A stretch of 62,990 nt of DNA, filler included, from Hausera hauseri (Eukaryota), in the NCBI GenBank assembly GCA_046269625.1. It is 12 parts of 12 records of this genome, joined end to end, with 100 filler letters (N's around TTAATTAATTAA, not from the genome) between each part and the next. Parts side by side here need not be neighbours in the genome. Positions count along the whole stretch, not along the records: positions 19,527 to 24,758 come from JBJURY010302944.1; 11 more parts are not named here. One strand, given 5' to 3'. The translations under genes were made by a program, and so were the position numbers. Each line of letters begins with the position of its first letter. Position 1 is the stretch's first letter. Below are positions 5,185 to 53,354 of the stretch, in pieces. The notes beneath the pieces were generated by a model. It worked only from the letters and a program-made list of their open reading frames with translations. It was not told where the DNA came from and made no database searches.

Positions 5185-5340
5185 GATTTCCCAGAATGTA
5201 TGGAATTCCGAGTAATACTCTGTGTAGTGTATCGACTTACACCCTGCCTACACATGCTATGTCTATACTGTATAGATCGAGTCCGATCCCAAGCAAATCA
5301 AATGCCATATTGCCCAATTTGTAAATATGAAATTAAATAT
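5185..5340 (+). pseudogene. RING-HC finger 1
   Basis: DFPECMEF...PCLHMLCLYCIDR...CPICK. C3HC4 spacing, with the first Cys replaced by Phe (TTC for TGC). Confidence 0.8.
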
Positions 5341-6081
5341 TACATCCAGCATAATGAACACCTATCTGATGCTGACCAACTCCTACTTGATATTACAACA
5401 TTTGAAATTACCGAACCTACTGACCACATGACATATTACTATACTTGGGATGTGTCAACCCATTTTTCTATCCCATATTTTTAACTTCATACATGTTGTC
5501 TATGCCATAAACACATTAAAACAACCTACCAATTTAGTTGCTGTAACGCCGAATATTGCTCTCATAGTTACCAAATGGAATCTCACCATCGACATCTGAT
5601 TTGTAGCATACGTTATCTTTATCTTCAATTTATATATTCTTACTTCCACCACCCTGTAAGAGCCCTCCTCACTATTACTAACACGCCGATTCCCCAATTA
5701 TTGCCAACCAGATACATCCGATTAGAGCAACAGTCATCGGCTAGAGTTGAATTTCCAATCCATCGTTTTAGGCCACCTACAATAGTTAGACCACCGCCAA
5801 GTACATACCGTGGACCTTTACCCCACATAAACGTCACATCCTTTCTACGTCAACCATCCTCCATACCACATCCACGTTATTGTCCTGAACAAATTGTTAG
5901 ACCTTTATCTTTACTACCAGTACTTATACCGACTATATCTCATAGTTCTCCATTAGCATCACCATTACAACTAAATTGATTCCCAGTCTTAAATCGATGC
6001 CCAATCGGCCTTATTTTTGATCTACATCCACCAGATATTTGTGCATCACTACAAATCCTTTTCTATGACCAACTCCCAACT

Positions 6082-6260
6082 TATGAAAGTACCATATGCC
6101 TTACTGAACGTATAACTGTTGTCCAATTTCAATGCAACCATAATCTATGCGCAACGTGCTTCAAAAATCTTCGTTCCCAATTCCTTCAATCCATCGATCC
6201 AAATGATACACTTCGTATGACCTTCCAGAATGGCATTTCATGTCCATACTGCCGTCAACC
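6082..6260 (+). pseudogene. RING-HC finger 2
   Basis: YESTICLTERITVVQFQCNHNLCATCFKNL...ISCPYCRQP. First Cys replaced by Ser (AGT for TGT). Same frame as RING 1. Confidence 0.8.
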
Positions 6261-6421
6261 ATCAGTTTATTACCACTTCTCATACACCTACAACAATCAT
6301 GTCCAACGATTATTCCATTGGATCAATCCTGTAAACGATGCGACATTAATAATCAGACCCAGAAACCTCAGCTTTATTGACGTCAGTACCCAGAGTGATC
6401 CGGAGGACCGAATCCTTTTTC

Positions 6422-6768
6422 AAAGGGGGGGAGAAATGTTAGAATTTATTGGCAGCAACAAAAACCCAATTATGAACAACCAAAATCCGAAACATCAATT
6501 CTACCAAAACATCAATCCAAGTGCAATTTTGACTTTTATTTCGATCATTCGATTGGACTTTGATTTTATTTAATCATTTCTTACAGTTCAGACATACAAA
6601 CTATGACAATGTGAATATTGTGTTATAATTAATAAACTCGTTGTATATAAATGTCTGTCTTCTTGTTATATTGTTGAACCCTGATGGGTATCTTCGCCAC
6701 ACCGTTTTATGTACAAGTATTGTTAACCAAAGCAGCTAATTAATATTGATACTGAATGGGTTAAAACA
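6422..6768 (+). repeat. Polypurine tract (6422-6436) and 3' LTR starting TGTT at 6437 (right end ~6768 uncertain)
   Basis: AAAGGGGGGGAGAAA is immediately followed by TGTTAGAA. AATAAA at 6631. Candidate ...AAAACA end at 6768. Confidence 0.65.
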
Positions 6769-14705: not shown

Positions 14706-17700
14706 GATGATGTGTTTAGGTGAGCCGAATCGGCTGAGCCATATGCGTATAAAGGCATCAGCTATGGACTCAGTGTTTGTGGATCGAAGTGGAACTGCTT
14801 CTGGCCATCTAGACGCGCGGTCCATCATTACAAGGATGAATTGATGACCGTTGTCTGGTGGAAGAGGGCCAACAATATCGAGATGGACAGTATCAAAGCG
14901 TGACGTACAGGGGAAATGATAAGGTAGCGGCTTTAGGTGTTTAGTGATTTTGAATTTTTGGCATGCCGCACAATCCTTAACCCATGACTGTACGTCTGTT
15001 TTCATTGACGGCCATGTAACTTCGGCTTTTAAGTGGTAATATGTAGCCTTTGATCCTGGATGGTGTAAGGCGTGAATATTTGTAAGAGCTATTTTTGGAG
15101 AGAAGAAACTAATATGATTTTAGGCTATGCAGGGTTGGTGGTATGGAAGGCCACGCCATCACTGATTTTAAAAGATTTATAAGAAGTGAGAGTTTCAGCA
15201 TCCGGTTGATTTCGTCGAAGAGTCTCATTATCTGGAATTGGTTTAAATGTTATACAGTCAACTGAACGTGACAAAAAATCAGCTATTACATTGCTATGCC
15301 ATTTATATGTTTTATTGTAAAATTGAAAGTTGACAAATAGGATATATGTCTTTTCTGACGTAGAGAGGGAGATTTCATGGTAAAGATGTGCAGCAGCGGC
15401 TTATGGTCCGTTTGAATTGTGAAGGTGCGCGCTGTTAGAAGGTGCCTAAATGCTTGACTGCGAGGACCATTGCTAAAGGTTCTCTATAGAAGGTTGAGTA
15501 CTTTTGTTCTGTTGTAGTAAATTTTCTAGAGAAGAACTCTAAAGGTTGATGTGCATTGTTTTTAAATTGGTGAAGTACTGCGCCTGCTGCGATAGTTGAT
15601 GCGTCTGTTGTAAGAAAAAGTTCTGATGTAGAATCTGGATAGGCTAATATTTTCATTGTTTTGTGATTTGCTTTTAGGTGTTCGAAAGCATTAACAAGTT
15701 CAGGCGTTTAAATAATAGGTTATTTCTTTTGGCCAAAATTTAAGGTAGCGAATGGAGCGGTTTAGGTTGAACAATGTGACACCGATTTGTGGACAAAATG
15801 CAAGGTGCCAAGGAAGGAACGCATTTCTGAAGTTGTATGTGGTAATTAAATGTTTTTCAGTTGAGTGATGCGGTCTTACTATGGAGCGTGTCCAGTTGGA
15901 GTAATAATGTGTCCAAGGAAATTGATTTTTTGTTTAAAAAGGAACATGTGCGAAGTTTATTTGGAGATTGTTTTGGTGAAGTCATTTGAAAACGATGCGT
16001 AGGTGCTCAGTATGCTGTTTAGAGGATGAGGAGGCAATGAAAATATCGTCGATGTAGGGATATGCGAAGTCTAGGTCTGCGAGGACCGTGTATATGTGCC
16101 TCTAAAAGGTTTGGGCTGCACTGCGTAAGCCAAGTGTAATGAATAGATATTAAAAAAGTCCAAAAGGAGTTGTAACTGCCGTTTTTGGAATGTCTGCTGG
16201 TGCTACAGGGATTTGGTGGTATGCCTTATAGAGATTGATGTTTAAGAAAATGGTGGAGGCATGAAGTCTATGTAGGATGTCATTGATTAGATGCAGAGGG
16301 TAGGCGTCCATGGTTGTGATTAGATTCAGTTGCTTGTAGTCACCGCATGGGCGAAATGATCCGTACTTTTTGGGGCAACATGTAATGGCGAAGCCCATGG
16401 AGATTTAGATCTTTTGATGATGCCTAAGCGTTGTAGTTCTGAAAATTCGGGTTCGACTGCCCGCCTGCGACGTGGGGATAATTGTCGTACCTTTTGTCGT
16501 ATTGGTCTTCGGTGTTCTGTAACGATATAATGAAAAGTATGCATGGCTGGTTTAAAAGTTTTGTCTTTCTGCAACAAATGAGTGCACGAAGAAAATACAT
16601 AGGATTGCAATTTGCGTGGAAGTGATGATAAGGCGGTTGACGGTGATGATGATATTGCGATTTGCCTGGCGTCAGTTAGAGAAGCAGTTGTATTATGAGA
16701 ACTAGGCGGAATTTGGTGCAATATGGTGGAACTGAAAATTGTGTTGCGGGAGGTTTTGTTAGCAAAAGGTGCCAAAAAGTTGGCACTGTCATATTTTTTA
16801 ACTGTATTATAGTAGTCGCTGAATAAGGGATGATTGTAATAATACTTTAAATTAATATGTGATTTTTTAAGAGCAGGTTTATGGTCAGTGATCGTCCGCT
16901 CGGTCGTCGAAATGATATTCACTGAGTTAGATTGTTCGAATTGATTTGAGTTAAGCAAGCAGCAACGTCTGCAATCCACCAGTAGTTGGTAATGGGATAG
17001 AAAGTCTGATCCCAATATAGGTGTTTGTACATTGGCAACTGTGAATGTCCAATTGTATGTCTTTTTGCTGCCTGGCAATGTAAAGGTGATGTTGATAATG
17101 CCAAAGGTATTTAGTTATGCCCCTGATGCAGTGAATAATTTTTTGTGTAAATTTGTTTTGTTATGCATTTGATGTTCAGTAGGAAGTAGAGAGGCAGCTG
17201 CTCCAGTGTTTATGAGGAAATTAATGTTTTGTTTTGTTGGAGTAACGACGGTTGCATCAAACGTAAAAAACTGCAAATGTTGTGCTTCGGCTGTCATTTT
17301 GTAAAGTGGAGCCTTTGCTAGAGGCGGCCGATGACTCTAGCGGCGTTATTAGTTTTTTAGCTGTGTTTGATTTTGTTTGTTAGTTGAGGGTCGCCTATTC
17401 TCATGCGAGTAGGAATTGCATCGTGGTAAACATCTTATGGCTTTAGTGTTGAATTTAGAATGATAGATGCAAATGTTGTTGCCGGACTTAAATTTAGGTG
17501 TAAAGAATTTGCACCCAATGCAACATTTGTGTGTGTTGTTTTCGATATTGTTATGATAATAACAAATAGACGATCGTACGGGCGATGGCAATCGTCTGTT
17601 GTGCAGTGGAGATTTATCGGAATGGGTGGCACCCGGAAATTTTGTCTGGAGAAGGTCAGTTGGCTCAACTTATTGTTCATACTGTTAATGGTTTCTAGCA

Positions 17701-19426: not shown

Positions 19427-19904
19427 NNNNNNNNNNNNNNNNNNNNNNNNNNNNNNNNNNNNNNNNNNNNTTAATTAATTAANNNNNNNNNNNNNNNNNN
19501 NNNNNNNNNNNNNNNNNNNNNNNNNNATAGTAAACTATACCGGACTCCAAGGCGACATACTGTCCGAAAAAGAAAGATTAATATATAATATAGCACGGAC
19601 CATGAAAACTTCGAGATTTAAATTATCTAAAAGCACCCTCCCGGACAAAACAGTGATTGACAGAATTATGGCAGATAATACAACGGAAGAATTAAGGAAA
19701 GTTTTGATATATTTGGCGGTAAGAACCAACCCCCACCGAGAAAACGAATTTGAAAAGACAATTGGATTGGCTAGAAAAGCTGCGAGAAGAATAACTAAAG
19801 AAGTAAAGTGGACTAAATTTTTTGAAAAAGAGGAAAATGTAAAAGGGACTAATAAGTTAGAAGATATGATACGAAATATCTCTTTAAATAGAGGCAATGA
19901 ATCC

Positions 19905-22024
19905 AATTGGTTAGTCAATCTACTAACAATAATGATGCTAGTGAAACAGCTAGGAGCAGTCACTATCTACGACTGTGATAAATTCAAGATGGGTCAAAGA
20001 TATTGTCTAATGGATCTGGAAGCGTGTGAAGATACCAGACCACACAAGTTAGAAACAAGAGAGAGAAATTACTTCTTGTACCAGCAACAAGAACTGATAT
20101 CGCTAGACGGAATGGAATGCATGTTGCGACGATCTCGCAGTATTTTTCACTGTGAATTAATGCACGGACATTCTTCAATAATCAAACCAACGATCCCTCC
20201 AATTCCCATGAACTTGGTACGGCAGCACTGCAAACAGGCTAAAGAGACTGGAAGAGTACATTGGGACAATATGGAATTAGAAATGCAAGCGGACAAAATA
20301 ATTAGGGCGTACAAAGTTGTAGCCGGAAGGTTAGACATGCACAATGGACACTGTAGTGGAGCTGAATACGATACTGGTAAGGGATTAGAACCAAACGCAG
20401 TAGTTGTGGATTTCTACGAATCGGAAATGCGATCACAAAAGGTAATGTTTCATAGCGTCACCAAGTTATATACGGAACACCAAAAATGTCATTTACAAGA
20501 TGGAACCTGTGCTTTTATGAGCTCGGTTACAATATGGGAACCGCCCTCAGGAAGAAGTTGTAAGTTTATTAAAATTAAAAAACTACAGTTTAATGAGACC
20601 ACCGGCAAGCGATACGTGGATAAATTGGATACCAACTCAAGGACGCACGAGGCTGTATTAGAACATCCTACGCCCATCATATTAATCTCACGTTGTGATG
20701 TGGTAATGTTTGCTACTAACTACGAAGAGTTCTTCGTAGCCGAAACTGAGATAAATGCGAGGACTTATAAGTTGGAAACACAAGATATCAGGATTGAGGA
20801 CTATCTAAAGAATAGAAACGATTATTTTTATTACAAAGGACAAACTGGAATAACTGAGTTATACCACAAAATGATAACGAACGACTGTAAATTGGATACT
20901 GAGATCATTAGGACAAAACTGGCTCTTATATATGCCAATCCAGAATCGGCTTCTCCAATAATTCCTATGATAGAGGGAATCTTTGGTCGAGTTACAGGCG
21001 AAGTATGACTAACTTACTAATGTGAAAAGAGAGATGTACCCATAAATGTAGAAGAGAAACGCTGCATCCAAAACACTCCTAGACTAGCTACACCATTGAT
21101 GAGAGTATTATTGGATAATGCAACCCAACTTACTATTCTTAAAGATTGTAAAGCGAGCTTAGCAGAGCCCATGTTTAGGCCTAGTGAGACAGAATGGGTC
21201 AGTTTACCGAATGGAGGTATTACTGCCACCTCATACAAATTAACATAAACAAATCTGGCGAAAGGAATTACGGACGACAAATTTCAGGACACTTCATCGA
21301 AAGGCATATATAGGCCTAAAGAGATTAAAGCCTTTAGACAATTCCTCGCTTTTTTACGACAACGAACGCATGAATTAAACCGAGCCATGGCCTCTGTGGT
21401 AGACGATACCTAATATCAGGCTAAGTGGGAATCTCTACTTGGCGCTAATAACTACCAAAGAGTAACTTCGGAAATATTGTATAAGATTTGAGGAAGATTT
21501 TTAATTTTCGGAAAGCTGCATCTGGATTTTTAGCCATCTACTTCTTAGTCCAGTTAGTTAAGGCCGTCTTACAAGCTATCATTAACGGATACGAAATATT
21601 CACATTAACCAGATTCTCCTGTAAGGTTTTAACTGCAAGTATTATACCCTTTGGGAAAATGCTCAAGGCCTACGAGGAAAATCAATGGAAAAATGATGTA
21701 AAACGCCATGTTGGATACTATAATCGCAAGCGACGAGGAAAACCTTCGATATTGTATAAACGTAAAAATAAGACAACAGTAACACGCAGGGATGATTCAG
21801 ATGATGACGAGCCTAAGGGAAGAGATGTGAATTGCAGAATGAAGATGCGCAAGATGTATTCAGTAATTAACGCGCCATTACCTATAATGCGGCCAACAGC
21901 ACCAATATATGAAGACTGTGACCGCAAATCAATCGTATCATGTCGGTCGGAAATCTATCAAAAACCGTCTAATTACGAAGATCCTTATGAAAAAACAAAA
22001 CAATATGGAGACTACGGAAAATAA
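19905..22024 (+). pseudogene. env: Chuvirus-like / gB-type class III fusion glycoprotein with internal signal peptide, TM anchor and cytoplasmic tail
   Basis: Ordered motifs YDC, CMLRRSRSIFHC..HGHSS, AGRLD..GHCSG, C..DGTC..TIW, C..D..I..KL..NP, GEV..Y.C, GIY, W(TGA)GRFLIFG and a TM (FLAIYFLVQLVKAVL) match chuviral G. Several stops after 21008 and a frameshift near 21512. Confidence 0.85.
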
Positions 22025-22029
22025 ATGTT

Positions 22030-24758
22030 ATGTACCAAGGACCAACAGAAAACGACCACGGAATATTGTACTCAAAAAGGATACCGCGCCACATAGAATC
22101 GGAATCAACAATCTGGGGGAACCCGAAACTGTGTTCGATCTCAAGTTCACTACCCCAGGAGCCGCTCATTGACAGTCGCGTTATTGAAATAATAAATAAC
22201 AATTTGTATCCGAATGGAGAATTAAGACAATTAAGGCAAGATATCATTTTATCGCCAGAAATAAAGATAAACGGACACAGAGTCTCTACTATAAAACGGT
22301 CCAAGATAGTGTCAAATTGCTACGGAACAGTAGCAGAAGGGAGACCTTTCGCTAACATACACATCGAAGATAGGGAAGTGTATGCGTTAATCGACACAGG
22401 ATCAGAAAAATCATTTATAAAATATGAATCGATACCAACCACATTTGGGCAAGTATCGAAGCCGAAATTTAAATGGACTCGTACCGTTTATCTAATGGGC
22501 CGAGCACTTCAACGTGAATTCGAGGTAATGGACCAGTTGTCAGACAATGTAGTACTAGGTTGTGATATATCAAAACAGATACCAGGTATGGCAATCGATG
22601 TCCATAACGGAAAATTAATTGAGCTGGAACCAATTAATAGGACAAAAATAATAAAGGAAAGGAAATCGGGCGAAGTATGGATTCCAGTAGATGAGGACAT
22701 CCCTCCCAGAACTGAAATGATAATTTTTGCGCAGATTCTTTAGGACGAAGATCTACCAGTACATTTTGAACCTCAAGAGAATATCGATCCAAATCTCATG
22801 ATTAGCAATATTCTATGTAGAATAGTGATGGGACAAATGCCTATCAGATTAGTGAACAATGCACCAACTACCGTACGATTGCATGCTAACACTACTCTAG
22901 GTCACACTTGTAGAGTATGGGCAATAACAATAGAAGAAAAACCATACAAATGCACAGAATTTCCACCTCACGTCGAAACCAAATTCTCTCCGGAAGAGTA
23001 TTGCAAGTTCTACGAATTATTATGTAAATACAGTTCGATAATCGCACAAAATGAAGAAGATATAGGTAGAGCAAAATCTTTAAGGTTAACAATTCCATTA
23101 AGGAAGAAACCCGGCTCAAATGACAAGATTGATCTAGAAGAACAGAAAATGCCCAAGTGGTACCAGCCTCCTCATTCATTGAGACCGGAGATAACTAAGG
23201 AAGTAGAGCGGATGTTGAAGGCCGATATAATTTGACCAATCTACCGATCGTGATACTCTTCTATACTTATGGTTAAAAAGAAAGAAACTAAAAAACATAG
23301 GTTTTGTATAGATTATCGGGCATTAAACACGTTGATGAAGAAAGACTCCTTTCCCCTACCGTCAGTAAAGGAAGCTTTAGACAGACTATAAGGAGCAAAA
23401 TGGTTTACCACTCTCGATTTACAATTGGGATACTGGCAGGTGGAAATCGAAGAAAAAGATCGATATAAGGCAGCGTTCAAAACACACGATGGCGTATACG
23501 AATTTAATGTTATGCCTTTCGTCATCACCACAGGACTAGCTATTTTTACTAGAATGATGAATAAGATGCTCATGGGACTTGATCATTCTTTTGCGTACTT
23601 AGACGACGTGATGATAGCATCAAATACGGAGGAGGAACACTTAAAGGATATTGAAGATACCCTCATGCGACTAGAACAAGCGAGTTTGAAACTAAATCCA
23701 AAGAAATGTAAATGGGCACAAAATGCAGTATCGTATCTCGGACACATAGTTGGAGAAGGAGAATCAAAACCGGACAAATCTCTACTAAATAAGATATCCG
23801 ATTACATGGAGCCGCAGAATCAAAAGAAATTAAGACATTGGTTAGGCCTATGTGGATATTATGCCACTTACGTACCAAACAATTCAAAAATTAACGCGTC
23901 ACTATATTGCCTACTCAAAAAAGGAATTAAGTGGAGATGGACGGAAGTGGAGCAAATAGTCTTCGATGAAATGAAGAAAGTTTTGACAAGTGAACCAGTT
24001 TTAAGATACCTGGATTTTAACCTGCCATTCATGATTAAAACAGATGCAAGTAAAGAAGGCATAAGATACGAATTAGCTCAAAAACGAGAAGGCGAAGAAC
24101 TGAAACATCCAATAGCTTATGGTGGACGCTCGTTAAAGAAAGCAGAAAAGAATTATTTAGTTACCGAATTAGAAACGCTAGCCGTTAAGGAAGCACTACG
24201 ACACTTTAACGTCTATGTCTACAGACAAAAGATCATAATACTAACCGACCACAAAGCTGTTACGACATTAAAAGGACGAGCTAATAACCCAACATGTAGA
24301 TTAAACAGTTAGATCGAGGAAATCTCACGATATAACATTGAATTTCAATACAAACCGCGGTAATAAACACGTCGACACCGACGCACTGTCAAGGTTAAAG
24401 ACAAAAACGAGTGCAATAACCACACTAAAGAAACCATAACTCGAACAGCTGATCGAACGACAAAGAACTCTGATATCGGATAAGACAATTAGAATTACAG
24501 CAGAGAAAGCTAAAGACACAGTTATTCAGCAAATTATCGAGTTCGTCAAAACAACAAAACGCCAAAAGGACGGCAACTGAAAAGCATCTACAGAAACACG
24601 GACATAAATATCGCGCATCAAACCAAGATAACACCCTGTATTACGAATGGAAAGGAAAAAGATTAATAGCCATTCCAAAATATTACGCACCGAAGTACTC
24701 ATGGCTGAACATGACTTGTATTTAGCTGGACACATGTCTTGGAAGAAGACATTGGAAA
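22030..24758 (+). pseudogene. pol: Pol: aspartic protease, RT, RNase H, integrase N-terminus
   Basis: ALIDTGS at 22393; [19 protein letters not shown] at 23596; IKTDAS, ELETLA, TDH, DALSR; EHDLYLAGHMSWKKT. Mostly one frame with stops. Confidence 0.95.
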
Positions 24759-25029: not shown

Positions 25030-27810
25030 AAATGATTAGGGTAGGTATGACATGTCACCATGTATAATTTTACAAAAGAAATCCTGACTTAGCCGGACGA
25101 AATGATTTTGAGCGGATCTTATTGTTTCATCACTCAGCGTACTGTCCAAGTAGGTTATTTCGAAAGTGCGCGTATTGTAGTGCCAAAAAGTGTGTCTGCA
25201 AGTGCTCAATTCGTGGTAGTAGACGACGTGTTGCGCCACCCGAGTAATACGAACGGGAGGATGGTCGTTGAATTCGCATGAGTTTCAGCAAGGATTTTTA
25301 TGAAAATTTTTAATGTCCTGTGGAAACGCACCAGCAAACCGTTCGACTGGGATAGTACGGAGTTGTGTGGATATGGCTTATGCCCAATCAATTAACTAAA
25401 GTTTGAATAAGCTCGATTGGAATTGGGGGCCTTAATCTGTTATAATATATTGTGGCGAACCGAACCCGCTAATCCAAATCATTATAAAAGCATCGGCGAT
25501 GGAGTCCGTATTAGTGGAGCGAAGAGAAATGGCCTCAGACCAACGATATGCACGGTCCGTCATTGTTAGAACGAATTGATGGCCGTTATCAGATGGTAAA
25601 GGACCGACAATGTCTAAATGGACGGAATCGAAGTGGGACGTACAGGGGAAATGAAATAATTGTTGCTTAATATGTCCGACAACCTTAAATTTTTGGTAAG
25701 CCACACATTGCCCAATCAAGCCCTTACGTCAGATCTCATCTATGGTCATGTTACACGGAGTTTAATGAGGTGAAATATAGCCTCCAAACCTGGGTGATGC
25801 AAAAAGTGAACGTAGTTAAAGGCTATTTGTTGAAGAGTTGGTGCTAAAATCGGTAAGTGATTCCTCGGTTTCGAAGTGTCCAATGCTACGCTATCGATGA
25901 TTTTGACTGATTTATATTGGTTTAGTATATCTACATTATAGTATATATATCTATTTAGTATATCTGGTCGGAGGGCTGTGAATTAGTTGTTCCTTAGGAA
26001 AAATTGACGAAACACTTTTCGCACCAACCGACCAAGACAAAGAATCAGCAATTAGATTTTTAGTACCAGAATTATGGCAAATTTTAAAAATAAAAGTTGA
26101 AAAATATGAAATATGGCCTTCCTGCCGAAGTAATGGATGTTTCCCGCTTATTACGTGAACAAGAGGAGTGTAGTACGTTTTAATGGTAAAAGACTGATCG
26201 ATGAGAAGGTGTGAAAAATGCTTAAGTGCTAAAATGATGTCTAACAATTCTCCATCAAACGTGGAATAGCTGCGTTCTTGTGGCTCTAATTTCCGTGAGA
26301 AAAACTCGAGTGGTTCATTTGTTTCTTCGTATGTTTGATGAAGAATTGCTCTGACTGCTGCTGTTGATGCATCGGTTATAAGTATGAGATCAGCATCAGG
26401 TCTGCGATAGGTTAGGACCTCAACTGTTTTCAGGCTGTTACCGAACTCATCAAATTCATTTACCAGGCTTGGTGTCCAGTGTAAGGGTTGTTTCGTTTTG
26501 CCTGCTCCTAGTTAAGCGAAAGCAGCAGTTAACTGATTACAATGTGGAACGTATTTATGGATAAAGTGCAAAGTTAAAAGGAAACTGCGCGTGTCTGTAG
26601 ACGTTTCTGAACTGTTGTACTCTATTAGAATGTGGACTGTGCCCGTCAGGTATGATTATGTGCTCGAGAAAGTTCACTTCTTTTAAAAAAATGAGCATTT
26701 TGCGAAGTTGACTTGCTAGGTGTTATTGTGCAATCGTTGGAAAAGTAGTTTAAGATGTTCTTCGCGTTGCTTTGGCGAAGTTGATGCGACCAGAATATCG
26801 TCGATGTATGGGTATGCAAGTGCTAAACCGGAAAGGATAGAGTCAATGTACCGCTGAAAGGTTTGAGCTGCAGTTTTGAAACCGAATGGAATTTACGTGT
26901 ATTCAAAAAGACCGAAAGGCGTGATTATGGCTGTTTTTTATGTCATCCAGCACCACTGCTATCTGGTAGTAAGCCTTTTCAAGATCGATGGTTGAATATA
27001 TGGTGGTACTGTGAAGTTAGTGTAAGATATTTTTTATTAATGGTAATTGATATGCGTCTATGGTAGTAACATTATTAAGTTGGTAGTAGTCGCCACATAG
27101 ACGGAATGTGCCATCCTTTTTTAAAACCACATGAAATGGTGATATTTAAAGCGATTTAGAAAGGTATATGACTCCAGCTTGTTCGAGAGAAGAGAATTCT
27201 GCTTGTACTACTGGTTGACGGCGTGGTGAAAGTGGTCGGAATTTTTGTCTAATGTGTCTAAGATTTTTAGTGGTGATATGGTGAAATGTTGTACTACCTG
27301 GTCGGAATGTTGAGTCTTTTTCAATGGTGTAAAAGCAAAACTTGGTTATGTATTTTTGGATACGGTGGTGAATTGTAGAACAAGCCGCAGCAGATATTGA
27401 GCTCCAAAAATCATCTTTGTCAAAGTTTTTTGTTTGATCGTTATTATAATTCGATTGAAATATAAAATTATTCGACATCGTATTATCAGAATTCGTATTT
27501 ATTTTGATAAAGGATGATAAGGTTTTAATACTGATTTGACGAACTATGCAGGTTGTGCAACCGGTGGCGCATTATTTGTACACGTTGCATTTTTTGAATT
27601 ATTAACGATCAGACATTGCCTGCAGTCAACAAGGAAGTTGTAAAAAGGGAGGAAATCTGAATCAAGTATGGGTGATTGTGCATCAGCTACGATAAAGGTC
27701 CAAATGAAGGTGTCGGGAAAAGATTATAATATAAAAGAAATTTTTGAAGTGCCTAAGGGGCGTAAAGCTTGACCTTTAGCAGTATATAGCTAGGTAGTAG
27801 ATGGGTAGGT
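25030..27810 (-). mobile_element. pol: Second decayed CsRn1-like Ty3/gypsy pol
   Basis: Collinear with 14706-17300: HIRQKFRPLSPRRQ, YIDD, TDAS, LEFFSRK, VHLDIVGPLPSDNGHQF, QSNGLLVRFHRTLK. Confidence 0.9.
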
Positions 27811-28911: not shown

Positions 28912-30095
28912 TTGATTGAACCAAATATAGAAAGGAATCCAATGTCTAGCTTTGGAATAGGAACTGGCTCAAGTACAACTGGTACAATGATACTTCCGAT
29001 GGGTAAGTTCGAAGGAAAACCGGACCAAGATAATAATAAGTTTTTAGTGCAATACCAAATGTATTCACAAAATTTACATGGTCAAATGAGCTCAGGATAC
29101 AACGTCTTCCCTTACATCTTAAAGGAATAGCACTTGGTGCTTATGCTCAGCTTACGGATGATGATAAGGCTGATTGGGCTAGCCTTAAGGATGCCCTGGA
29201 AGAAAGACTCTTAGTAGACCCATCGGGAAAAGGTCGAATAAGAGAGTTTAACAGGCGACGACAAAGGAAAGGCGAAACAGTGCAAGAGTTTGCATGTGCC
29301 CTTCAAAAGCTGGCTCAAAGAGCTTACACAGATGTTGATATAAGGGAAGATGCCCTCCTAGCTCAATTTTGGCTATGGGGTTAACAGGGAAATTCAAAAT
29401 TATATTATTGTTGCTGACCCTGACACTTATAAAGAAGCTATTAGTAAAGCTAGAAAAATTGAGTTAAACTATGAAAGATTGGAAAATACTAAAAAGCCTC
29501 CTAAAACGATGACAGAAAGTTAAAAAATTTTCAGTCGAAGAAAAATTCCCAAAAGCCGTCTTATAAAGTCCAGAATCAAATAGAACAACAGCCGAAAAAG
29601 GTTACGTAACAAGAGATCAACCTCAAAAATCTGCGATGAAGAATCCAACGGTTAACCAGAATGGACAACCATTATCTTTCGCTTGTCAAAAATACGGACA
29701 TATGGCTCGCTTTTGTCCTAACCAAGGATAGTTAAGTCAGAAGAAGAAAAACGTTGATATAGTAGGCAATATATCTGATACGGATAATGAACACGTAACT
29801 ACAGATATAGAACTTAAAGAAACAACTGAAAAGCTACAGTTGAAGATGAAATCTAAATTAAAAGAAGGCAAAACCAATACAGTAGAAGATGAAGATAAGA
29901 CAGCCGAATTAAAACATCTGTACCTTGAATTAAAGGAACAACAAACTTGCGAGAGAAGACAGAAAATGAATGATGAAAGTTCAGTCATTGCTCCTATAGG
30001 TAGACCCAAAAAGACTCCTACATCAGGATCAGATACCAAAAAGAAAAGGGCCAAGAAAATGGATAAACCTTTGATACAAGAAAAAGAATTGAAGA
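28912..30095 (+). pseudogene. gag: Ty3/gypsy Gag (CA and zinc knuckle) plus start of a downstream charged region; relative of the gag at 30.5 kb
   Basis: KFEGKPDQD, RLPLHLKGIALGAY, RRQRKGETVQEFA, knuckle VNQNGQPLSFACQKYGHMARFCP (compare VNRNGNLVCFTCGKGHISRSCP). Confidence 0.85.
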
Positions 30096-30373
30096 NNNNN
30101 NNNNNNNNNNNNNNNNNNNNNNNNNNNNNNNNNNNNNNNTTAATTAATTAANNNNNNNNNNNNNNNNNNNNNNNNNNNNNNNNNNNNNNNNNNNNTCTAC
30201 AAATTTTATTTATTTCTTTCATATTATTTTTTCATTTCCAACATATGGTTTTATTTCTAAATCAATATATTTTTATGCAGCAACTGTGAAAACACTAATA
30301 AAAAAATAATTTTGCAACCACCAATGTCTAATATTAACAGAATATATTTATAATTGAAAGATTTATGCAACTT

Positions 30374-30433
30374 AGGTGCTATTTACAAACCACTATAGCG
30401 CTATTTACAAACCACTATAGTGCTATTTACAAC
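30374..30433. repeat. 22-bp tandem repeat, ~2.6 copies
   Basis: gctatttacaaaccactatag(c/t) repeated. Confidence 0.8.
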
Positions 30434-30499
30434 AGTTAAAACGAAAATTAAATGGGGTATATAAGGCTATTGAACGGGGATAAGTAACGCAACCTTTAA

Positions 30500-31770
30500 T
30501 CCAGAACAAGCATTGATAAGTCAAAAGCAAACCGTGTATTAAATGATAATTCACCTATACGTGAGACACGTCGAAACATATCTAGAGATATACAAAAAGT
30601 AGATAAACGTTCAAATTCAGAGAATAGAACCAAATTTGACGTTACCGAGCAGAATAAGCAATTTAAAATTCCACTTGAGAAGCATAGAATAACGAAACCA
30701 AATTTAGAGATAAATAACGTAAATAATTTGGCAGCAGATGACCCACCAGTAGCGCAGAAAATGGACATCTTTACCTTTGACTCTCTGAACTTGCCGGCAT
30801 ACGATGGCGACCCGGACGGGCTTAACGAATTCTTGAGAACTTATAAATTGCACACAGAAGTGCTAGTCTCACTCCTGAGGTAATGATTAAACGCTTGTCA
30901 TTATATTTGAAAAATGTAGCCGCTGACGCTTATAGTGAGCTCACAAATGATGAGAAAAAATCCTGGTCCTCCTTGGTAGGAGCATTAAACAGTAAATTAT
31001 TACCGACCGTAACTCCGCAGCAGAAGCTTATGGCGTTTCAGAATAGAGTACAACGAAAGGGTGAATCAGTAACCCAATTCGCATTTGCGTTGAAGAAGCT
31101 TGTAATAGTTATATAAACACACTACGTATAGCCAACGTAGCTAGAGCCAAAACGGATGCGGAACGCGAGGCCGCAGAAAAGGCAACACCACCAGATCTAG
31201 ATGTCATGATGACGACTCAATTAATCTATGATATTTGGTCACGAGATTTGGTTAAACAATTAATTTTGGCTAGACCTGAAAACTTTGAAGGAACTCTACA
31301 GTTAGCTCAAGATTTAGAAATGGCACTCGACAGATATGCCAGACACAACGATAGAAACAACAGAAATAATTATCGAAGTGATCGTAACGACAGAAATCGG
31401 AATGATAATCGTGGAAGAGAAGATAGACGATTTACGGGTATTAAAAATTATGGGAATCGAAATAATCATAGCAGTTACAGAAATGGCGGAGGTAATAATT
31501 ATACTAATACGAAGAGATCATATTTTAACTGGAATAGGACTAGAGGAAATTATAAAGGCTCAAACTACTCGAATCAAAACGGCGATAACCAAAATAATGA
31601 TAATCGACAAAATGCAGGTAACGCGCAAAGTTTGTCAAATCAGTATAATAAAAGTATGAACAGATCTAAGTCACCTGTGAACGAAGATGGTCGACAAAGA
31701 GTCAACAGAAATGGGAATTTAGTTTGTTTTACTTGCGGAAAAGGACACATTTCAAGATCATGTCCAAACC
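30500..31770 (+). pseudogene. gag: Ty3/gypsy Gag (capsid, Asn/Arg-rich linker, CCHC-type knuckle)
   Basis: LPAYDGDPDGLNEFL, RLSLYLKNVAADAY, RVQRKGESVTQFAFAL, CFTCGKGHISRSC at 31725-31763. Confidence 0.88.
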
Positions 31771-34708
31771 CACGTAGCGTTTCATTTACTAAGCCGAACA
31801 AGACTAGTATGATCAGAACTAACGAAAATTTAGAAGCAAAGTATGGGGTTCGCGGTGATACAGGCACTATCATTGACATACAAGATTTACGGTGGTTTCT
31901 AGACGCTCAGCCTAAATCCAATAACCCACAAATTTTGATGGCTAGAAAAGAATACAGAGATAAGCTGAGACTACTAGAGGTATATCATGGTATAGTAGAA
32001 CCAGAAACTGACTATGAGCATGCGATTTCCCCTAAGCGAATTTATATGACACGGAAAAAGAGTGTTCCGACAAGTAATAAACCATCTGATAAGCCAGGCA
32101 CATCGACAGAAGTCGACTTAGATGCAGAGCCTGAGCTCACAGTTGAAAAGATAGAGAAGCCCACGAATGACGATGCAGCAGAAAAAGAATGTATGCAACC
32201 ATTAATACTTAAAATTACCAAAAATAGAGGCCGTAGCCCTTCATTAAAAACAAAACGTAGAAGCCGTTCACGTTCAGAAGTAACTAGAGCGAAAATAGCA
32301 GAAATGAAGGATACGAGCATCTCGGTAGGAAGCGACGTAGCACAAAACTTAGAAACACCAGAAGTCGGCCCATTTACACCTATCGAAGTGAGAGAACCTA
32401 AAGAGTTAGTCAATGAAATTAACGAGATTTGTCCACTTCCCATTAGTGAGGAAGAAACGGTAAATACCGACTATTCTGATCCAAAGAAGTGGAAAGTCCT
32501 ACGCTCATGGAAAAATGCCGATGAGCTAAAGGAAATGAGAGTTAGATGTCACGATCCAGAAATACTACAGCAAAATTTGGAAAGACTTAGACAGATTAGC
32601 CAGCAAGTAGATATATCTGGAAAAGAACAGCAGTATGCTGAGAGACTATATAAAAGTTTGAAATTATATAGTGAAGGGAAACTTACAGAAGCAATCGACT
32701 TAGGACAATCGGAAGATGTATCACCTCAAACATTGTCAAAATGGGAGCATGAGTTAGAATCATGGATTAAAAGAGGAGTAGAATTTTCGGAAGGATGGAG
32801 CCAAATAGAAGATAGTGTCGACGCAAAAGTCACTAAAGCTCAGACGCTATTGTCAACCTTAGAAGCAAACCCAAAATTAAAGAGTGTGGTCCGAAATTTA
32901 GAACGTATGATGGATGAAATTCGTCACGCAATAATTAATCGGCTTAGGGAAAAACCGGTTAACCATCGAAGTAATATCAATTTAGAAATATTGGGCATAG
33001 ACCCTATATATATTCCCCCTTTGACGGCGATGATAAAAATCACCTTTGGTGTACCCAAACAATATACAAACCTAGAAAATTGAATTAAGATAGAAAGTGA
33101 AAGGCGAGCGCAGATTTATAGTTTGAGAAACCGGATTATGTTTCCAAACAACGAAGAAAACAAAGTACGTAGTAAAAGCTTGTATCATAGAATTTGATGA
33201 ACATAAGGACGAGTTTAGCTATGTCGGCTGGATTATGGATTTCCTAAGAGGGCCGGACGATGAGTTGAAAGATGCATGTAAGATGCTAGATAAGACTATA
33301 ATGACAAAGCCAATAATCTCAAATCAGTTGTCGGAATGGTTTGAATTAGTAATATGGTTAAGCAATTTAGTGGGAAGTCGTAAGAAAGAATTCCAAGAGA
33401 GCGAGCTTTCTGTAAAGAAATAGTTAGAAGAAAGCGCGCGCAATTTAGACACAGTACTAACATAAATCGACATCGAACGCGATTTGAAGCATTACGACGA
33501 CTCAATTTTATGAAAAAGAAACAAGAAGCGACGATTCTGGAAGAGATATGTAAAATGGTCGAAGAGACGAATTTTACAGAAAAGCTGAATATGACTTGCA
33601 ATTTTTATCCAAGATTGAGAAATGTCCGATTAGAAGGAGTTCAACATTTAACAGAGAAACCTATTGACGAGATCTCTGTCCAAGACATCGAAACCTTAGA
33701 CATTTGTCCGGAACACCGAGCCACTTTGACGTACACGATAAAATTTTAGCACAAGCCACAAGAATAGATGGCCGGATCAGATCAGAATTTCCATACCGAG
33801 TTGATAAAGATAAGAAACGATCAACATCTTAGTGTTCAATAATCTAAGTTCGTAAAGAAATTGCTGGATGCAATAGATCCAGACTCAAAAGCCTACTTAT
33901 TGGTATCAATGGCAGAAATTAATGACGAAAGGATGAGACAACTGATGCAAAAATTACAGCAAGTCGAAGAGACGTACATCAGAACAAAACAAAGAGCATC
34001 TAGGCTAGATGAACTGGCAAAAGAATTCGAAATTTACCGAAACAAATATGCGTTATCGAATCAGAGATTAAAAATAAACGAGAATTCGTATAAAGATGGC
34101 AAAAGATGTAATTATTTAATTAACATATTATCACCAAAAAGGACTCATCGAGTCTAACAAATTCGGCGAATTACTGAAAATGATTCGATGTGACTGTGGA
34201 AACGGAATAGGGTTCCGAATTGCACAGATGAAGGAAATACAATCAAGACTAAAAAAAATTACGGAAAACGTGAAACGAACAAATACAGCCTTGGTAGACT
34301 ATGGACTTCCAGACGACGGAAACGAACCCGAATGGGATGCATACTTTGTCGCGATACTTGCCGAAAAGCTTATGACTCCAGTACAACTAAATGAGATAGA
34401 AATATGTCTGCAGAACAGGAGATTCAATGTGGTGATACTTCTGGATTCGGCGCTAGCTGAAAAGAGTTAATCGAATTAATTAACGTAAACATTACTGGAA
34501 GTAAGTTAAGACAACTTATTCCAACATTAACTAAATTATCCAGTAAGAATAGGATTTATAGCACGGTGCCGAAACTTTTGATTAGGAAATACGCTAAATT
34601 CTTAAGGGCTAAACCAGAAGTAGCGATAAAAATATTGGTAACATCCGAATGGATGGAGGAAAAAGAATGTGAGCTAACTACATATTTCTACGGAAAAGAT
34701 GTAAGAGA
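31771..34708 (+). pseudogene. Gag-fused ~1000-aa unknown region X (copy 1), ending in the N-half of a ubiquitin-like domain
   Basis: In frame with the knuckle in ORF 31206-33083. Collinear with 49479-52217 (RSWKNADELK.MR.RCHDPE, GPDDELKDA, QDIETLDI, LVDYGLPD.GNEPEWDAY, SEWM.EKECELTTY). Confidence 0.85.
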
Positions 34709-35124: not shown

Positions 35125-35934
35125 CCATCATGAAGTAGCTTGAGTTGACACCTAGATGTTTTAAAATAGATGTTTTCTTTACTTTTCAGCATATTATCAT
35201 TATTTATCTTCTAGTTGATTTATTAACAAACTTTAATGGATTTTCTTAATGAAATTGGGTAGCGAGAGGGCTTAACTAACAAGATCGATGTTTATTTTTT
35301 GTAAGATCTTCAACTATAGTTTGTCGAATCGTTTTTTTCGGAAGAATGTTTATTCGATATTTTTACGTGGTGCTTCCAATAAGTAATGAGCCCAATTTGG
35401 AAGTATATTTTCGAATAATGTCAGAATTTACGTGCAGCATTTGGATTTAGGAAGTCTTTTGCAGAATATTCTAAAGATGTATGAAATTCTGCTGTTCCTC
35501 TATGTCTCATAATTAAGATGGGAGTCTTAAGAGTTGAAATTTTCATGCGAAGAGTGTTCAAAGAAATAACGGATACTCACTATGTTTGGGAATACTTATA
35601 TCATACTCGTCGATTTTAAGTCATATTGCAATTGATTCATCATTTGGCCTTTTTATAAGAACTAGCTGAAATTGATATTTTCTTATCTCTTGTATAAATT
35701 GTCAAAACTTCGTTTGTCGCAACAATAATTATTGAAAGTAAAATATATATCAGTGATTTCTAACTGCTTAAGCCTAAATGATCATTATAGAATATTAAAT
35801 ATTTATAAAAATAATACAAATAATTTGGTCTTCTTTACATAGTATAGAGTTACCTTGTGTTATAAAGAGAGCTGAGAATCACAAATTGTATATATGTACA
35901 GTAAGAATAATAAGTACATTCTGACATGTATAAA

Positions 35935-36760
35935 TAGATTAACCCATTTTGTCGAACTGATGGCATTAGTGGACCAAAAAGCGTAGACTGGCAGAAGCCG
36001 TAGTAAGGAAAATCATCTGCAGATACGAACCTCCTGAACAAATTCTGACAGATCGAGGAAGGAACTTTACGAGTGAATTATTCGAAGGGATTACCAAAAT
36101 ATTTGAGATTGAACGATTAACCGCAACTGCTTACCACCTGCAATGTAACGGAATGGTCGAACGGATGAACGCAACCGTTATACGAATCTTATCAATAGTA
36201 GTTGCGAAAGACCAGAAGGATTGGGATGAATTCTTAGAGGGTACACAGTTTGACATAAACACTACATCACATCCCTCAACAGGATTTACTCCATTTTTAT
36301 GATGTATGGTAGAGACGCTGTACTACCCACGGACTTATGAATAATACCATATACAGTAAAAACGGATAATCTAATACTAAACTTTGTTAAATTGTTGCAG
36401 ACGGGATTACGCAAACGATGGGATATAGCCAAAGAATTGTCCAAAAAATATCAAGAGCAATTTAAAAGGCAATATGATAATAACGCTATACCATATGATT
36501 TGGAGAAAGGAAACTGGGTTTATGTGCATTATCTGGTTGCGAAGAAAGACAAATCTTTAAAACTAACCCGAACTGGCAGAGGACCTTATAAAATTATTAG
36601 AACCACACCAACTAAAGTCTATATTAATAAAAATGGCAAAGAGGTCGTATCCATACAAAGAGTGGTCAAAACGGAAATAAGGCCAAATAAACGATATAAT
36701 CTGCGTTCGACTGAGAAAAATCCAAGTCAAACCAAGAAAGAAAAGAAAACGTCATCGATA
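35935..36760 (+). pseudogene. pol: Ty3/gypsy integrase core and GPY/F C-terminus
   Basis: PEQILTDRGRNFTSELF, TAYHLQCNGMVERMN, QKDWD, STGFTPF..YGRD, RGPYKII, RYNLRS. Confidence 0.93.
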
Positions 36761-38229: not shown

Positions 38230-38370
38230 CTCACAATTATATACACCAATTTTTCCTCAATGTATGAGCAGAAAACGCTTTGAGACCATAAAACAATATT
38301 TACATTTTTCCGACAACAACGAATTTGATCCAGCAAATCACCTTAGCCTGAAACTCAACTAAATATAGCC
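38230..38370 (+). mobile_element. piggyBac transposase fragment
   Basis: TPIFPQCMSRKRFETIKQYLHFSDN (PGBD-type MSR.RF...LHF.DN motif). Confidence 0.85.
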
Positions 38371-49478: not shown

Positions 49479-52400
49479 GAAGAGAAATTACAATTAATGG
49501 AAGTTTTTCACGGGCCAGAAACCGAGAATGAATATGCACTGGCACCAAACAATACTAATATGGGGCGGAAAAAGCCTATTCCGCAAGGAATAGCCCAGTT
49601 AGAGAAACAAATGACACCTCAGAATATAGATTTAGACGCCGAAATAGAATCCGGAATGAATAACCCAGATGAAACGACAGATGAAGTCGAAAGTGAATTT
49701 ACTGGGCTCTTAGTTCTCAAAATAACAGAACAAGAGCAGAAGCCCAACGCCTAAGAGGGGGTCCAAGACTCGCTCTCGGTCTTCCGTTCAAAGGGACTCG
49801 GAAGAGAAGATTTCTATACTGTTACCTTAGGTGATGATTTGCTCTCAAACACTCCTATTATGCCTAAAAAACCTTCAGAAACGTTAGAAACACCAGATGT
49901 AATAAATATTAATGACGAAATTAACGAGATTTTTTCGCCTCCCACTACTGAGGAAGAAACAGAAAATAGTAATGATTTTGACCAGAGGAAATGGAAATTT
50001 CCACGCTCATGGAAGAATGCCGATGAATTAAAGAAAATGAGAATTAGATGTCACGATCCGGAGGTAATCTAAAACAATTTAGAAAGACTTAAACAGATTA
50101 GCAGACAAGTAGATATATCTGGTAAAGAAGAACAATTTGCGAAGTTATAAAAGTTTAAAATTATGTAGCAAGGGGAAGCTCGATGAAGCAATCGAATTAA
50201 GACAATCCGAAGAGGTATCACAGGATACGTTGAGCAAATGGAACCAGGAATTAGAGTCATGGATTAAAAGTGGAGTCGAATTCTCAAATGGATCTAGTAA
50301 AAACCAAGACTGGATGTAAAAGTTGCTAAAGCACAAACGTTACTATCAACCTTAGAAGTTAATCCCAAGTTGACAAGAGTAATCCGTGATTTAGAACGCA
50401 AGATGGATGAAATCCGTTATGCAATGATCAACCGGCTTATAGAAAAAAAGTCAGCAATCGAAAAGATATCGATTTAGAAATATTTGGTATAGACCCAGTA
50501 GATATTCCTCCCTTGATGGAAATGATAAAAATTACCTTTGCCTTACCCAGACGATGTAAGAATTTAGAGAATCGTATTAAAATGGAGAACGAAGAGATCA
50601 CAGATCAGTAGTTTGAGAAATCGAATTATGTTAATGAATAACGAAGAAACCAAATACATAATAAAGGCTTGTATCATAAAATTCGATGAACATAAGGATG
50701 AGTTTAACTACGTTATCCAAATTATGAATTTCATAAAAGGTCCAGACGACGAATTAAAAGATGCATATAAGATGCTAGACAAGGCTATATTGGCAAAACC
50801 AGTAATCGCCAACCAGTTGTCAGAATGGTCCGAGTTAATAACGAGATTAAGCAAATTAGTAGAAGACCGTAAGAAAGAATTCCCAGAAAGCGAACCATCT
50901 GTAAAAATGCAATTAGAAGAAAGTGTACGTAACCTAGATACCATACAAGCAGAAATAGACATCCGAACACAGTTCGAAGTATTACGACGTTTAAATTTTA
51001 TGAAGAAGGAGCAAGAAACGATGATATTGGTAGAGATTTATAAAATGATCGAAGAAACAAACTTTACAGAAAAACGAAATGGCTTGCAATTTTTATCCGA
51101 AATTAGCAAACATCCAGTTATAAGGAGTCCAATACTTGACGGCTAAATCCATCGACAAAATTTTAATACAAGATATCGAAACTTTAGATATTTATACAAA
51201 ACATAGAGTGGCCATGGAAGAAGCGATGAGGTTCATATGTAACCCACACGAATGTATGCCTGGAACAGATCAAAACTGTCATACCGAGTTAACCAAAATA
51301 AGAAACGAGCAACATTTCAGTTTCGAAGAAGCTAAATTTGTAAAGAAATTGCTCGACGCAATGGATCCCGATTCAAAAATCATAAATGAGATGTGAGTTA
51401 ATCTACTTATTAGTAGAAATGGCAGAGATTAACGATTAGATGAGACAACTGATGTCCCAATTACGACAAGTTGAGGAAACATGCATCAGAACTAAACAAA
51501 GAGCAACAAGGTTAGACTAATTAGTAAAAGAACTTGAAGTCTATCGAAACAAACATGCTTTCACCAAGTCAGAAATCGTAAACAAATGAGAATTTGTGCA
51601 AAGATGGCAGAGATGTAATTATTGAATTGACTGATTATCACCAGAAGGGATTCATCAATTGTAATGAATTAGACGAATTGCTGAAAACGATTCAGTATGC
51701 CTGTGGGAACGAAATATGTTTCCGGACTATGCAGATGAAGGAAATACAACCAAGATTGGAAGAAATTCGGGAAAATGTGCAAAGAACGAATACGGCCTTA
51801 GTAGACTATGGACTTCCAGATGTTGGGAATGAACCGGAATGGGATGCGTATTTAGAGGCGATAACGGCCGAAAATCCTATAACTCCAGTACCCCTAAATA
51901 AAATAGAAGCATATCCGCAGAACAAGAAGTTCAATGTGGAGATGCTCCTGGATTTAGCACCAACCGCAAAAGATATAATCGAGCTAATTAACGTAAACAT
52001 TACTGAAAATAAGTTAAGACAACTTATTCCGACCTTAACTAAATTATCTAGTGAGAACACAATTTACAATACGACGCCGAAACTTTTGATAAAGATGTAT
52101 GCCAAAATCTTCAGGGCTAAACCTGAAGCAACAATGAAAATAAAAATATCGTCCGAGTGGATGGACGAAAAAGAATGCGAGTTGACCACTTATTCCTTCG
52201 TAAAGGACGTAAGAGTGGTTAAGGAATAACGGTGGAACGAACGAGTCAAATTATAGATTTTATTTCAGAGGTAGAATACTAGACGATTTAGAACAGTTAA
52301 TAGACGTCGGAATTATACCCGACGAAACAAACAGAATAGTGGTAACAATAACCAACGAACAGACTAAAGAAGCCACACGTAAAGCAAAGACAGAACAATG

Positions 52401-53064
52401 TGTAGGACAAATCATGGGAGTTCAAGACGCCGCAATTTATTTCGATTATTTTCAAACAGACGAAGACAAGGAACAATATGACAAGAATTTAGTACCATTA
52501 AGCATAACATTGCCAGCTGCCCCGAAACAGACGGCCAGTAGGTAAGCCTAGGAAAATTCGAGAAGACGTCGATCACAACTGAGAGCTAATTAGAGAATTG
52601 AGACAGATGTCAATTCCCACTTTCAGTACGGATAATGAAGAATTAATTGAATTAATGAGGAATCTAATGCGAATCGTGAATTATTCGAGCCTTCGAGGAG
52701 ACGCATTAGATGACAAAGAGAAAGTGATATTTAATGCAGCTAGGAGAATGAGGAGCTCGCATTTTAAGTTATCAAAGAGTAACCTAACTGACGATGTAGT
52801 AGTTGAGAAAATTATGGTGGAGAACACGACAGAAGAGCTAAGGAAAGTATTCTTGTACTTAGCAATCATGACAAATCCTAATGGAGAAAATGAATTTCAT
52901 CGAGCTACAAGCTTGGCGCGACAGGCGGCTAGGAAGCTTCCTTGCAAAGTAAGTTGGCCAAAATTATTTGATAAAGAAGACAAAAGGATCAGTAGTAACA
53001 ATAGAATTGAAGACATCTTACGGAACTTGACGACAACGGATAATAACAACCAGAAGAATGAATC
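49479..53064 (+). pseudogene. Region X (copy 2) including ubiquitin-like domain and pre-env segment
   Basis: Collinear with 31970-34708. IVNYSSLRGD...ENTTEELRKVFLYLA..TNP..ENEF is collinear with 19527-19904. Confidence 0.88.
52134..52350 (+). pseudogene. Ubiquitin-like domain (one frameshift near 52215)
   Basis: MKIKISSEWMDEKECELTTYSFVKDVR/(E)WLRNNGGTNESNYRFYFRGRILDDLEQLIDVGIIPDETNRIVV aligns without gaps to ubiquitin 1-71. Confidence 0.75.
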
Positions 53065-53354
53065 TAACTGGTTGATCAGCTTACTCACTATAATGATGCT
53101 AATAAAACAGATAGGTGCTGTCACTCTATGATTGCGATAGATTTAAGCTCGGACAAAAATATTCACTAATGGACTTAGAGGCGTGTGAAAAACGCCAGAC
53201 CACACAAATTGGAAACGAAGGAGAAGAGTTATTTCCTATACCAATAACAAGAATTGATATCTTTGGACGGCATAGAGTGTATGCTGAGACGATCTCGTAG
53301 CATTTTCCACTGTGGACTAATGCACGGACATTCCTCGATAATCAAACCAACAAC
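53065..53354 (+). pseudogene. env: Signal peptide and N-terminus of chuvirus/gB-type glycoprotein (copy 2)
   Basis: NWLISLLTIMMLIKQIGAVT-LYDCDRFKLGQKYSLMDLEACE...CMLRRSRSIFHCGLMHGHSSIIKP. Confidence 0.9.

Follow-up and report, generated by a model that had tools for sequence, protein, structure and literature searches.

In a stretch of 62,990 nucleotides from the genome of Hausera hauseri (hereafter the window), we recognize a decayed Ty3/gypsy LTR retrotransposon of the gag-env-pol kind, which resembles the planarian element Burro and in its intact form was most likely made as one polyprotein carrying its signal sequence internally. We put the probability of this reading at roughly two in three. 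The chain would run from Gag through a charged insert, a ubiquitin-like domain and a Bcl-2-like domain (termed X) to the signal, a class III glycoprotein, a transmembrane (TM) segment and a tail, and from there to a protease (PR), a reverse transcriptase (RT), an RNase H (RH) and an integrase (IN). The order of the parts, a conserved internal hydrophobic signal, one strong TM segment and continuity in related proteins are all observed.

The element and its copies in the window

The window was taken as 13 unrelated short contigs of 4-10 kb with N spacers between them. Three of these overlap in sequence and represent one element: copy 1, which carries the env finding (contig 19527-24758), copy 2 (contig 49303-53354), which agrees with copy 1 in 69% of nucleotides along 645 nt, and copy 3 (contig 30196-34708), which agrees with copy 2 in 75% along 2.3 kb. 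All of them are decayed, copies 1 and 2 stop inside the element, and no contig covers both element ends; an intact copy of the family was not found, copies 1-3 of the window all being broken. Copies 2 and 3 are separated by 12 frame-changing gaps within 2293 nt, so lesions are common in the element.

The N-terminal part is found on copy 3 (30847..34708, + strand), where a Gag capsid (PF03732, E 6e-4), a CCHC knuckle (~31722-31769; zf-CCHC, E 0.052) and a long charged insert lead into a ubiquitin-like domain, within which the feature ends. This Gag aligns with that of P0009, one of the related proteins described below, at 42.5% (E 4e-13). Capsid and knuckle are tied to copy 2 by the overlap and do not lie on the contig of the env finding.

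Several other features share the window. At 28987-30095 (+) lies the 5' end of a second gag-env-pol family, broken by frame changes; its Gag (28987-29499) is ~80% identical to P0009, and at 29999 it holds the same G[RK]P[RK][RK] motif as described for copy 2 further on. The region 35900-37828 (+) encodes an integrase closest to those of P0004, P0002 and P0011, after which come a stretch of mild hydrophobicity, a region rich in beta structure and a stalk rich in Thr; a related element may have its 3' end here. Two decayed, mutually related copies of another Ty3/gypsy pol family, with PR-RT-RH-IN motifs, are found at 14706-17138 (-) and 25441-27789 (-). Two RING fingers are encoded in a long frame at 4774-6570 (+) that is interrupted by few stops; this frame and the likewise stop-poor region upstream of it (789-3721, with 2567-3718 giving no Pfam match) possibly belong to another decayed mobile element, and pieces at 38150-38359 (+) and 39093-39875 (+) resemble, by their motifs, a piggyBac transposase and a Helitron Rep. 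A 67-bp unit is repeated in tandem about 60 times at 53455-57532, with 65-69% match. Two further ORFs are probably host exons: one of 643 codons that encodes a coiled coil and contains a 45-bp triple repeat (42479-44410, +), and one that matches PTB/PID weakly (47404-48255, +; E 0.085).

An internal signal sequence in the env frame

A preliminary description of the window had placed a hydrophobic segment, NWLVNLLTIMMLVKQLGA followed by VTIYDC, at least 126 codons into an open frame. This is what copy 1 displays: the N of the segment is codon 127 (nt 19905), the first V stands at 19959, and the env frame is stop-free from the contig edge to a stop at 21006. At this composition, 126 open codons ahead of the signal have a chance probability of ~1e-4. 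The signal sequence (19905..19958, +), with a predicted signal-peptidase cut between 19958 and 19959, forms the only Kyte-Doolittle peak of at least 1.6 in 19527-21530 (19-residue window; 1.76), and the match to the glycoprotein profile PF24664 begins on it, at profile position 6. A small residue occupies position -1 of the aligned cut site in 13 of the 14 long relatives; in copy 1, the n-region beside it has no clear basic character. The signal, the cut and the TM segment discussed below were called by hydropathy and the -3/-1 rule only.

Conservation of the signal in copy 2, also claimed previously, holds as well. By hydropathy, the same segment is present there at 53066..53119 (+), with a peak of 1.94 and after 161 open codons; the start of the glycoprotein follows at 53120-53354, with a frame change just past the cut. 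Between copies 1 and 2, the signal shows pN 0.09 and pS 0.64 over 21 codons, and X shows pN 0.25 and pS 0.81 over 100 codons, the mismatches in both falling mostly on third positions. Purifying selection acts on both X and the signal in the env frame, and neither copy has a stop between X and env.

Glycoprotein, TM segment, tail and Pol

Downstream of the cut, copy 1 encodes a class III (gB/chuvirus-like) ectodomain and membrane-proximal region (19959..21514, +), recognized by PF24664, a Monjiviricetes fusion-glycoprotein profile, with E 2.5e-36 when stops are read as the letter X. The ectodomain contains two sequons and 15 Cys, compared to 0-1 Cys in domain X, and its frame is interrupted by five stops, at 21006, 21018, 21246, 21411 and 21489. 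Through a frame change within 21506-21530, the second frame takes over with a stop-transfer TM segment (21515..21583, +; Kyte-Doolittle 1.85; PF24664 positions 545-601), which in 13 relatives is in frame. Judged by hydropathy only, the ectodomain of copy 1 is bounded by the signal on one side and this TM segment on the other. The tail, predicted to be cytosolic (21584..22024, +), consists of an amphipathic stretch and then a basic cluster with 12 K/R in 30 residues; its frame comprises 179 open codons and ends at the stop 22022-22024.

Pol occupies a third frame (21991..24758, +), from the linker to the start of IN, where the contig end cuts it, and has five stops of its own. Pfam matches (PF00077, PF00078, PF17919, PF17917 and PF17921) locate the protease at ~22336-22452, RT at ~23275-23751, RNase H at ~23938-24333 and, in another frame, the start of the integrase zinc finger at ~24677-24757, all on the + strand. 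This PR-RT-RH-IN order is that of Ty3/gypsy (Metaviridae), and identity to the relatives is 39-45% (blastp). A class III gB-like env sits upstream of PR on one contig.

Because the ectodomain carries stops, the TM segment lies in a second frame and Pol in a third, no continuous Gag-X-Env-Pol frame is visible in the window. With copy 1 broken in this manner, the one-polyprotein topology rests on the relatives, and the breaks in copy 1 would be lesions.

Related proteins continue across the junctions

All relatives stem from one exhaustive search with 167 hits, 26 of which have E <= 1e-10; word-index homologue searches, with env queries and with an alignment, returned no relatives. They are known from protein sequence alone, and some could be joined gene models; one of these is presumably P0036, in which, judging by a motif, the signal seems to have been joined to a host protein. 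Identity of their env to the window env is only 26-33%. In a quick version of the env tree, covering 43 of 151 rows (17 from the top 30, 25 others and the window row; 103 had enough coverage), the window env lies on a long branch within a 13-row clade (SH-aLRT 97) that consists of 10 of these related proteins, two fragments and itself. The Bcl-2 domain is present in both of its closest env neighbours, P0005 and P0001, which speaks for a Bcl-2-like X in the window as well.

Nineteen of the 26 close hits keep the start of the glycoprotein. In 14 of the 19, the same protein has 140-1360 residues ahead of it, including a CCHC knuckle in six. The TM segment is kept in 13 of the 26; 11 of them run on into the protease (10 by Pfam, P0008 by motif), and the other two end 55-62 residues past the TM start. 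P0009 is continuous from Gag to env, and P0004 and P0012 unite knuckle, env, PR, RT, RH and IN in a single chain. The single polyprotein proposed earlier agrees with these relatives, which extend upstream and into the protease; the window has no intact copy.

The end of the tail frame allows for a different reading, in which the Gag-X-Env frame terminates at 22024 and a programmed -1 frameshift within the overlap 21991-22021 gives access to Pol. Tail stop and Pol frame overlap by 31 nt, the latter being open for 250 codons, and the overlap holds near-matches to slippery heptamers. None of these is exact, however, and 24 of 59 background windows contain near-matches too. A stimulatory structure is missing, as the tail-Pol RNA folds worse than shuffles (z +1.3 and +1.5). 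Copy 1, the one copy that covers this junction, has 10 other stops and at least two other frame changes, and the TM-bearing relatives read directly into the protease or end early. We therefore regard such a frameshift as improbable; at the three junctions examined, programmed-frameshift signals did not rise above background.

Some relatives display additional domains. Two to four tandem aspartic-protease-like domains lie past the env tail in P0002, P0003, P0005, P0006 and P0014, and a possible decayed extra protease repeat is located ahead of the protease of copy 1, at ~22200-22300. P0002, P0004 and P0011 have a further signal-like segment, domain and TM segment after the integrase, making a second membrane protein at the chain end possible, perhaps an attachment protein. 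In place of Gag, P0011 has an N-terminus with no Pfam match and an acidic motif that resembles a DEDD 3'-5' exonuclease.

The region upstream of X

Ahead of X, copy 2 encodes a helical and ubiquitin-like domain (51970..52350, +), split by a frame change within 52213-52229. A profile of this domain was built from four relatives and run on 1510 stop-free pieces of the window, and the three best-ranked pieces all belong to this domain: from copy 3 its N-half (E 0.0015), and from copy 2 both the N-half, ahead of the stop at 52227, and the C-half, which follows in the next frame (E 0.15-0.17 each). Pfam ubiquitin matched two of six inputs, namely the copy 2 C-half, weakly (E 0.021), and the P0009 domain (E 0.004). 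The weak Pfam match, the position and the relatives' profile together place a Ubi/SUMO-like domain ahead of X. The stop at 52227 lies inside this domain and so is not the gene end.

Splicing to TATTTCAG at 52261-52268 had been suggested as another route to env. This site encodes a conserved strand of the ubiquitin-like domain, and TTTCAG occurs three times on the copy 2 contig against 1.02 expected, a frequency no more than chance; we rejected it as an acceptor, and the suggestion was not borne out.

An env with an N-terminal leader of its own, derived from a nearby Met or by splicing at 52268, would resemble the Drosophila errantiviruses, which use a spliced env RNA. Apart from the presence of TTTCAG, this reading could draw on a Met in copy 1, 31 residues ahead of the cut (19866), and on five of the 19 relatives that begin at or within the signal. 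The Met, however, is not conserved in copy 2. The only Mets near the signal common to both copies are two inside the h-region, which would leave 8-9 signal residues, and therefore env is without its own leader, in line with the preliminary description. The selection acting on X in the env frame speaks against a leader as well, as does the location of the splice site, which falls within the coding region for the ubiquitin-like domain, 800 nt ahead of the signal. The five short relatives are fragments of 272-318 aa without the TM segment, two of which begin past the h-region. A separate env leader is largely refuted, and we consider it highly improbable.

Closer to X, the 75 nt upstream of the domain contain two breaks in copy 2, a frame change located within 52508-52542 and a stop at 52580-52582. 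Given the 12 frame-changing gaps between copies 2 and 3, the simple reading is that these breaks are lesions. Alternatively, the break could be regulated, with Gag and the insert forming one product and X-signal-Env-Pol being made at a lower level via readthrough, frameshift or splicing. For splicing, a second and stronger acceptor-like site is available just ahead of the first X Met codons (52614..52626, +; TTTCAG with 9 of 10 pyrimidines upstream), and translation would start at 52655 or 52667; the signal would still be internal, with capsid and fusogen no longer 1:1. Such a break would fit the excess of Gag over Pol that is the rule in retroelements, and the N-terminus of five of the 14 long relatives lies 145-165 residues ahead of the glycoprotein, close to the start of X. 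On the other hand, P0009, P0015 and P0006 are continuous across the region, lesion density in copies 2 and 3 is high, and the RNA behind the stop is without structure (z +0.44 and +0.73). Moreover, the stop is preceded, in the X frame, by an AT-hook-like G[RK]P[RK][RK] motif (52541..52582, +, including the in-frame stop). This motif has two matches in the 125,976 six-frame residues of the window and is found upstream of the signal in four of the 14 long relatives and never downstream. We judge a regulated break unlikely, though it is the less remote of the readings set against a single polyprotein. Equal amounts of capsid and fusogen, as put forward earlier, would follow only if no junction is regulated.

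X as a probable Bcl-2-like domain

Copy 1 contains the C-terminal part of X, predicted to be cytosolic, directly before the signal (19527..19904, +), at the place where relatives have a Bcl-2-fold domain. Copy 2 includes the N-terminal helix (52583..53065, +) and is 57% identical to copy 1 at the amino acid level.

In the relatives, X is a Bcl-2 fold. Four relatives chosen by eye for the pre-signal motif all match Pfam Bcl-2 (best E 2e-5), their profile found P0122 as a fifth Bcl-2-bearing relative, and the resulting five-sequence profile matches Bcl-xL with E 5e-5. For the predicted fold of the P0009 domain (pLDDT 82.5), cellular or viral Bcl-2-fold proteins fill the first 35 places in the list of structural matches (best Z 13.1, rmsd 3.3, 130 aligned), the next unrelated match having a Z of 5.4. 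The Foldseek list for this model likewise points at the Bcl-2 family (best E 3e-3).

In the window, X is probably a diverged form of the same fold. Copy 1 aligns with positions 34-115 of the relatives' Bcl-2 profile in the expected register at 8.1 bits, a score reached by 5 of 2000 shuffles; for copy 2 the match is not significant (118 of 2000). Pairwise comparison with the four relatives is weak, copy 1 against P0005 being the best (6 of 500 shuffles). Neither window copy matches Pfam Bcl-2, whereas all four relatives do, and BH1/BH2 motifs were not found in window X, where only the final Trp remains of the relatives' W..GGW. By hhalign, the probability for window X is 1%. When a reverse profile was built from the two window X domains, none of its 150 hits was a relative with the Bcl-2 domain (best 3.7 bits) and the PDB yielded no Bcl-2, and the ESM Atlas gave 0.82 at best, which is within chance. 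The copy 2 model has six helices at low confidence (pLDDT 53) and generic helical structural matches only (best Z 5.7). Helix by helix it corresponds to P0009, but through an alignment common to both.

Comparison with known systems

The closest known arrangement is that of Burro (GYPSM1), a giant planarian Ty3/gypsy element in which, according to the Burro section of PMC6431247, one ORF of 4,873-5,140 aa encodes Gag-CCHC, a coiled-coil insert, Ubi/SUMO-like and BCL2-like domains, env and PR-RT-RH-IN. The env has mononegavirus-glycoprotein hits and is called there the first in frame between gag and pol; signal peptide or topology is not discussed in that section. Compared by description, the window element has the same order of parts if X is taken as BCL2-like, its in-frame continuity being seen in the relatives only. 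Burro exceeds 30 kb, with LTRs and a planarian host, whereas the composite coding sequence of the window element is incomplete at ~3,200 codons; one knuckle is seen here, compared to two or three in Burro. The MATH, BIR, ankyrin and midasin-like domains of Burro gave no Pfam match in the decayed single-frame pieces at E <= 0.05, and its dUTPase-like domain gave none at E <= 1 in the ~270-codon PR-RT spacer of the window. Since the gag-env-pol order is already known from Burro, the finding itself is not a discovery, and the membrane-routing reading is the only addition.

Chary & Hayashi report GAG-ENV-POL errantiviruses with an HSV/gB-type env in Nematoda, Bryozoa and Platyhelminthes (PMC13524379). 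As in the window element, a Ty3/gypsy Pol is preceded by a gB-type env whose ectodomain lies between a signal peptide/TM and a TM segment. The main text of PMC13524379 contains no 'polyprotein', 'single ORF', 'frameshift', 'splic', 'ubiquitin' or Bcl-2, and the rows of its supplements 1 and 4 give element coordinates or structure classes and no ORF boundaries; as far as it was drawn on here, an internal-signal topology is not taken up there either. The window element works like Burro and these gB-type GAG-ENV-POL elements, the likeness to Burro being one of description. The nematode NERVs of Sacco et al. 2022 reportedly have a continuous gag-env-pro-pol ORF, in which the env before pol is said to have been captured from an RNA virus.

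The Anakin elements are BEL/Pao elements with a chuvirus glycoprotein, as outlined in the part of 10.1101/2020.02.15.950899 drawn on here. They share with the window element the glycoprotein family and its presence on an LTR element, and differ from it in their BEL/Pao Pol and in an env placed after pol, so that nothing need return to the cytosol for Pol. P0107, one of the search hits, looks by a motif like an Anakin-type fragment, its signal following an integrase-like stretch.

The topology had previously been likened to that of flaviviruses and alphaviruses. This likeness is no more than an analogy of topology, since the window fusogen is class III (PF24664). Flavivirus fusogens are class II, and no homology is involved. 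In the flavivirus anchored capsid, the signal lies inside a longer cytosolic N-terminal part, and this is the nearer analogue. The foamy-virus Env leader, described in the part of PMC7828637 used here as a type II membrane subunit of 120-130 aa that is retained in particles, similarly has its signal set within a longer cytosolic N-terminal part. Unlike the window env, to which it has no homology, foamy Env has its own gene and is processed mainly by furin.

We found no literature on an internal-signal topology of such elements. Searching for Bcl-2 and retrotransposons missed Burro, and because Burro surfaced by name only, absence from these searches is a weak argument.

Proposed membrane routing and implications

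Following the general course of ER targeting, SRP would engage the internal signal upon its emergence, with the N-terminal side staying cytosolic. Signal peptidase would then cut between GA and VT, allowing the ectodomain to fold in the ER lumen, until the TM segment halts transfer and the tail and Pol are made in the cytosol. Gag-X would thereby be tethered to the membrane by the signal remnant and Pol by the Env tail, and the element's own protease would free Gag, X and Pol from these tethers. A cytosolic Gag-X, a lumenal glycoprotein and a cytosolic Pol had been proposed in the preliminary description; the internal signal, the single TM segment and the relatives that occur as single proteins are in agreement, while the window copies are broken.

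Should this routing be correct, the signal remnant would keep X anchored in the way of tail-anchored Bcl-2 proteins, and Pol would be tied to Env rather than to Gag. More tentatively, the signal might also serve as the C-terminal anchor of a Bcl-2-fold cell-death regulator. As Env would split Gag from Pol during synthesis, Pol could then no longer ride into particles on Gag and would be packaged on the Env tail, with trimerisation there bringing protease monomers together, and Env would be needed even for intracellular transposition; we hold this reading to be doubtful.

The proposed routing makes concrete how a retroelement would work when its fusogen splits Gag from Pol within one chain, and it can be tested on the predicted cut site, the single TM segment and the Bcl-2-plus-anchor product alike. 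The relatives indicate that the cassette of ubiquitin-like domain, Bcl-2 domain and env also occurs in elements more compact than Burro, and two families of the gag-env-pol kind are present in this one window.
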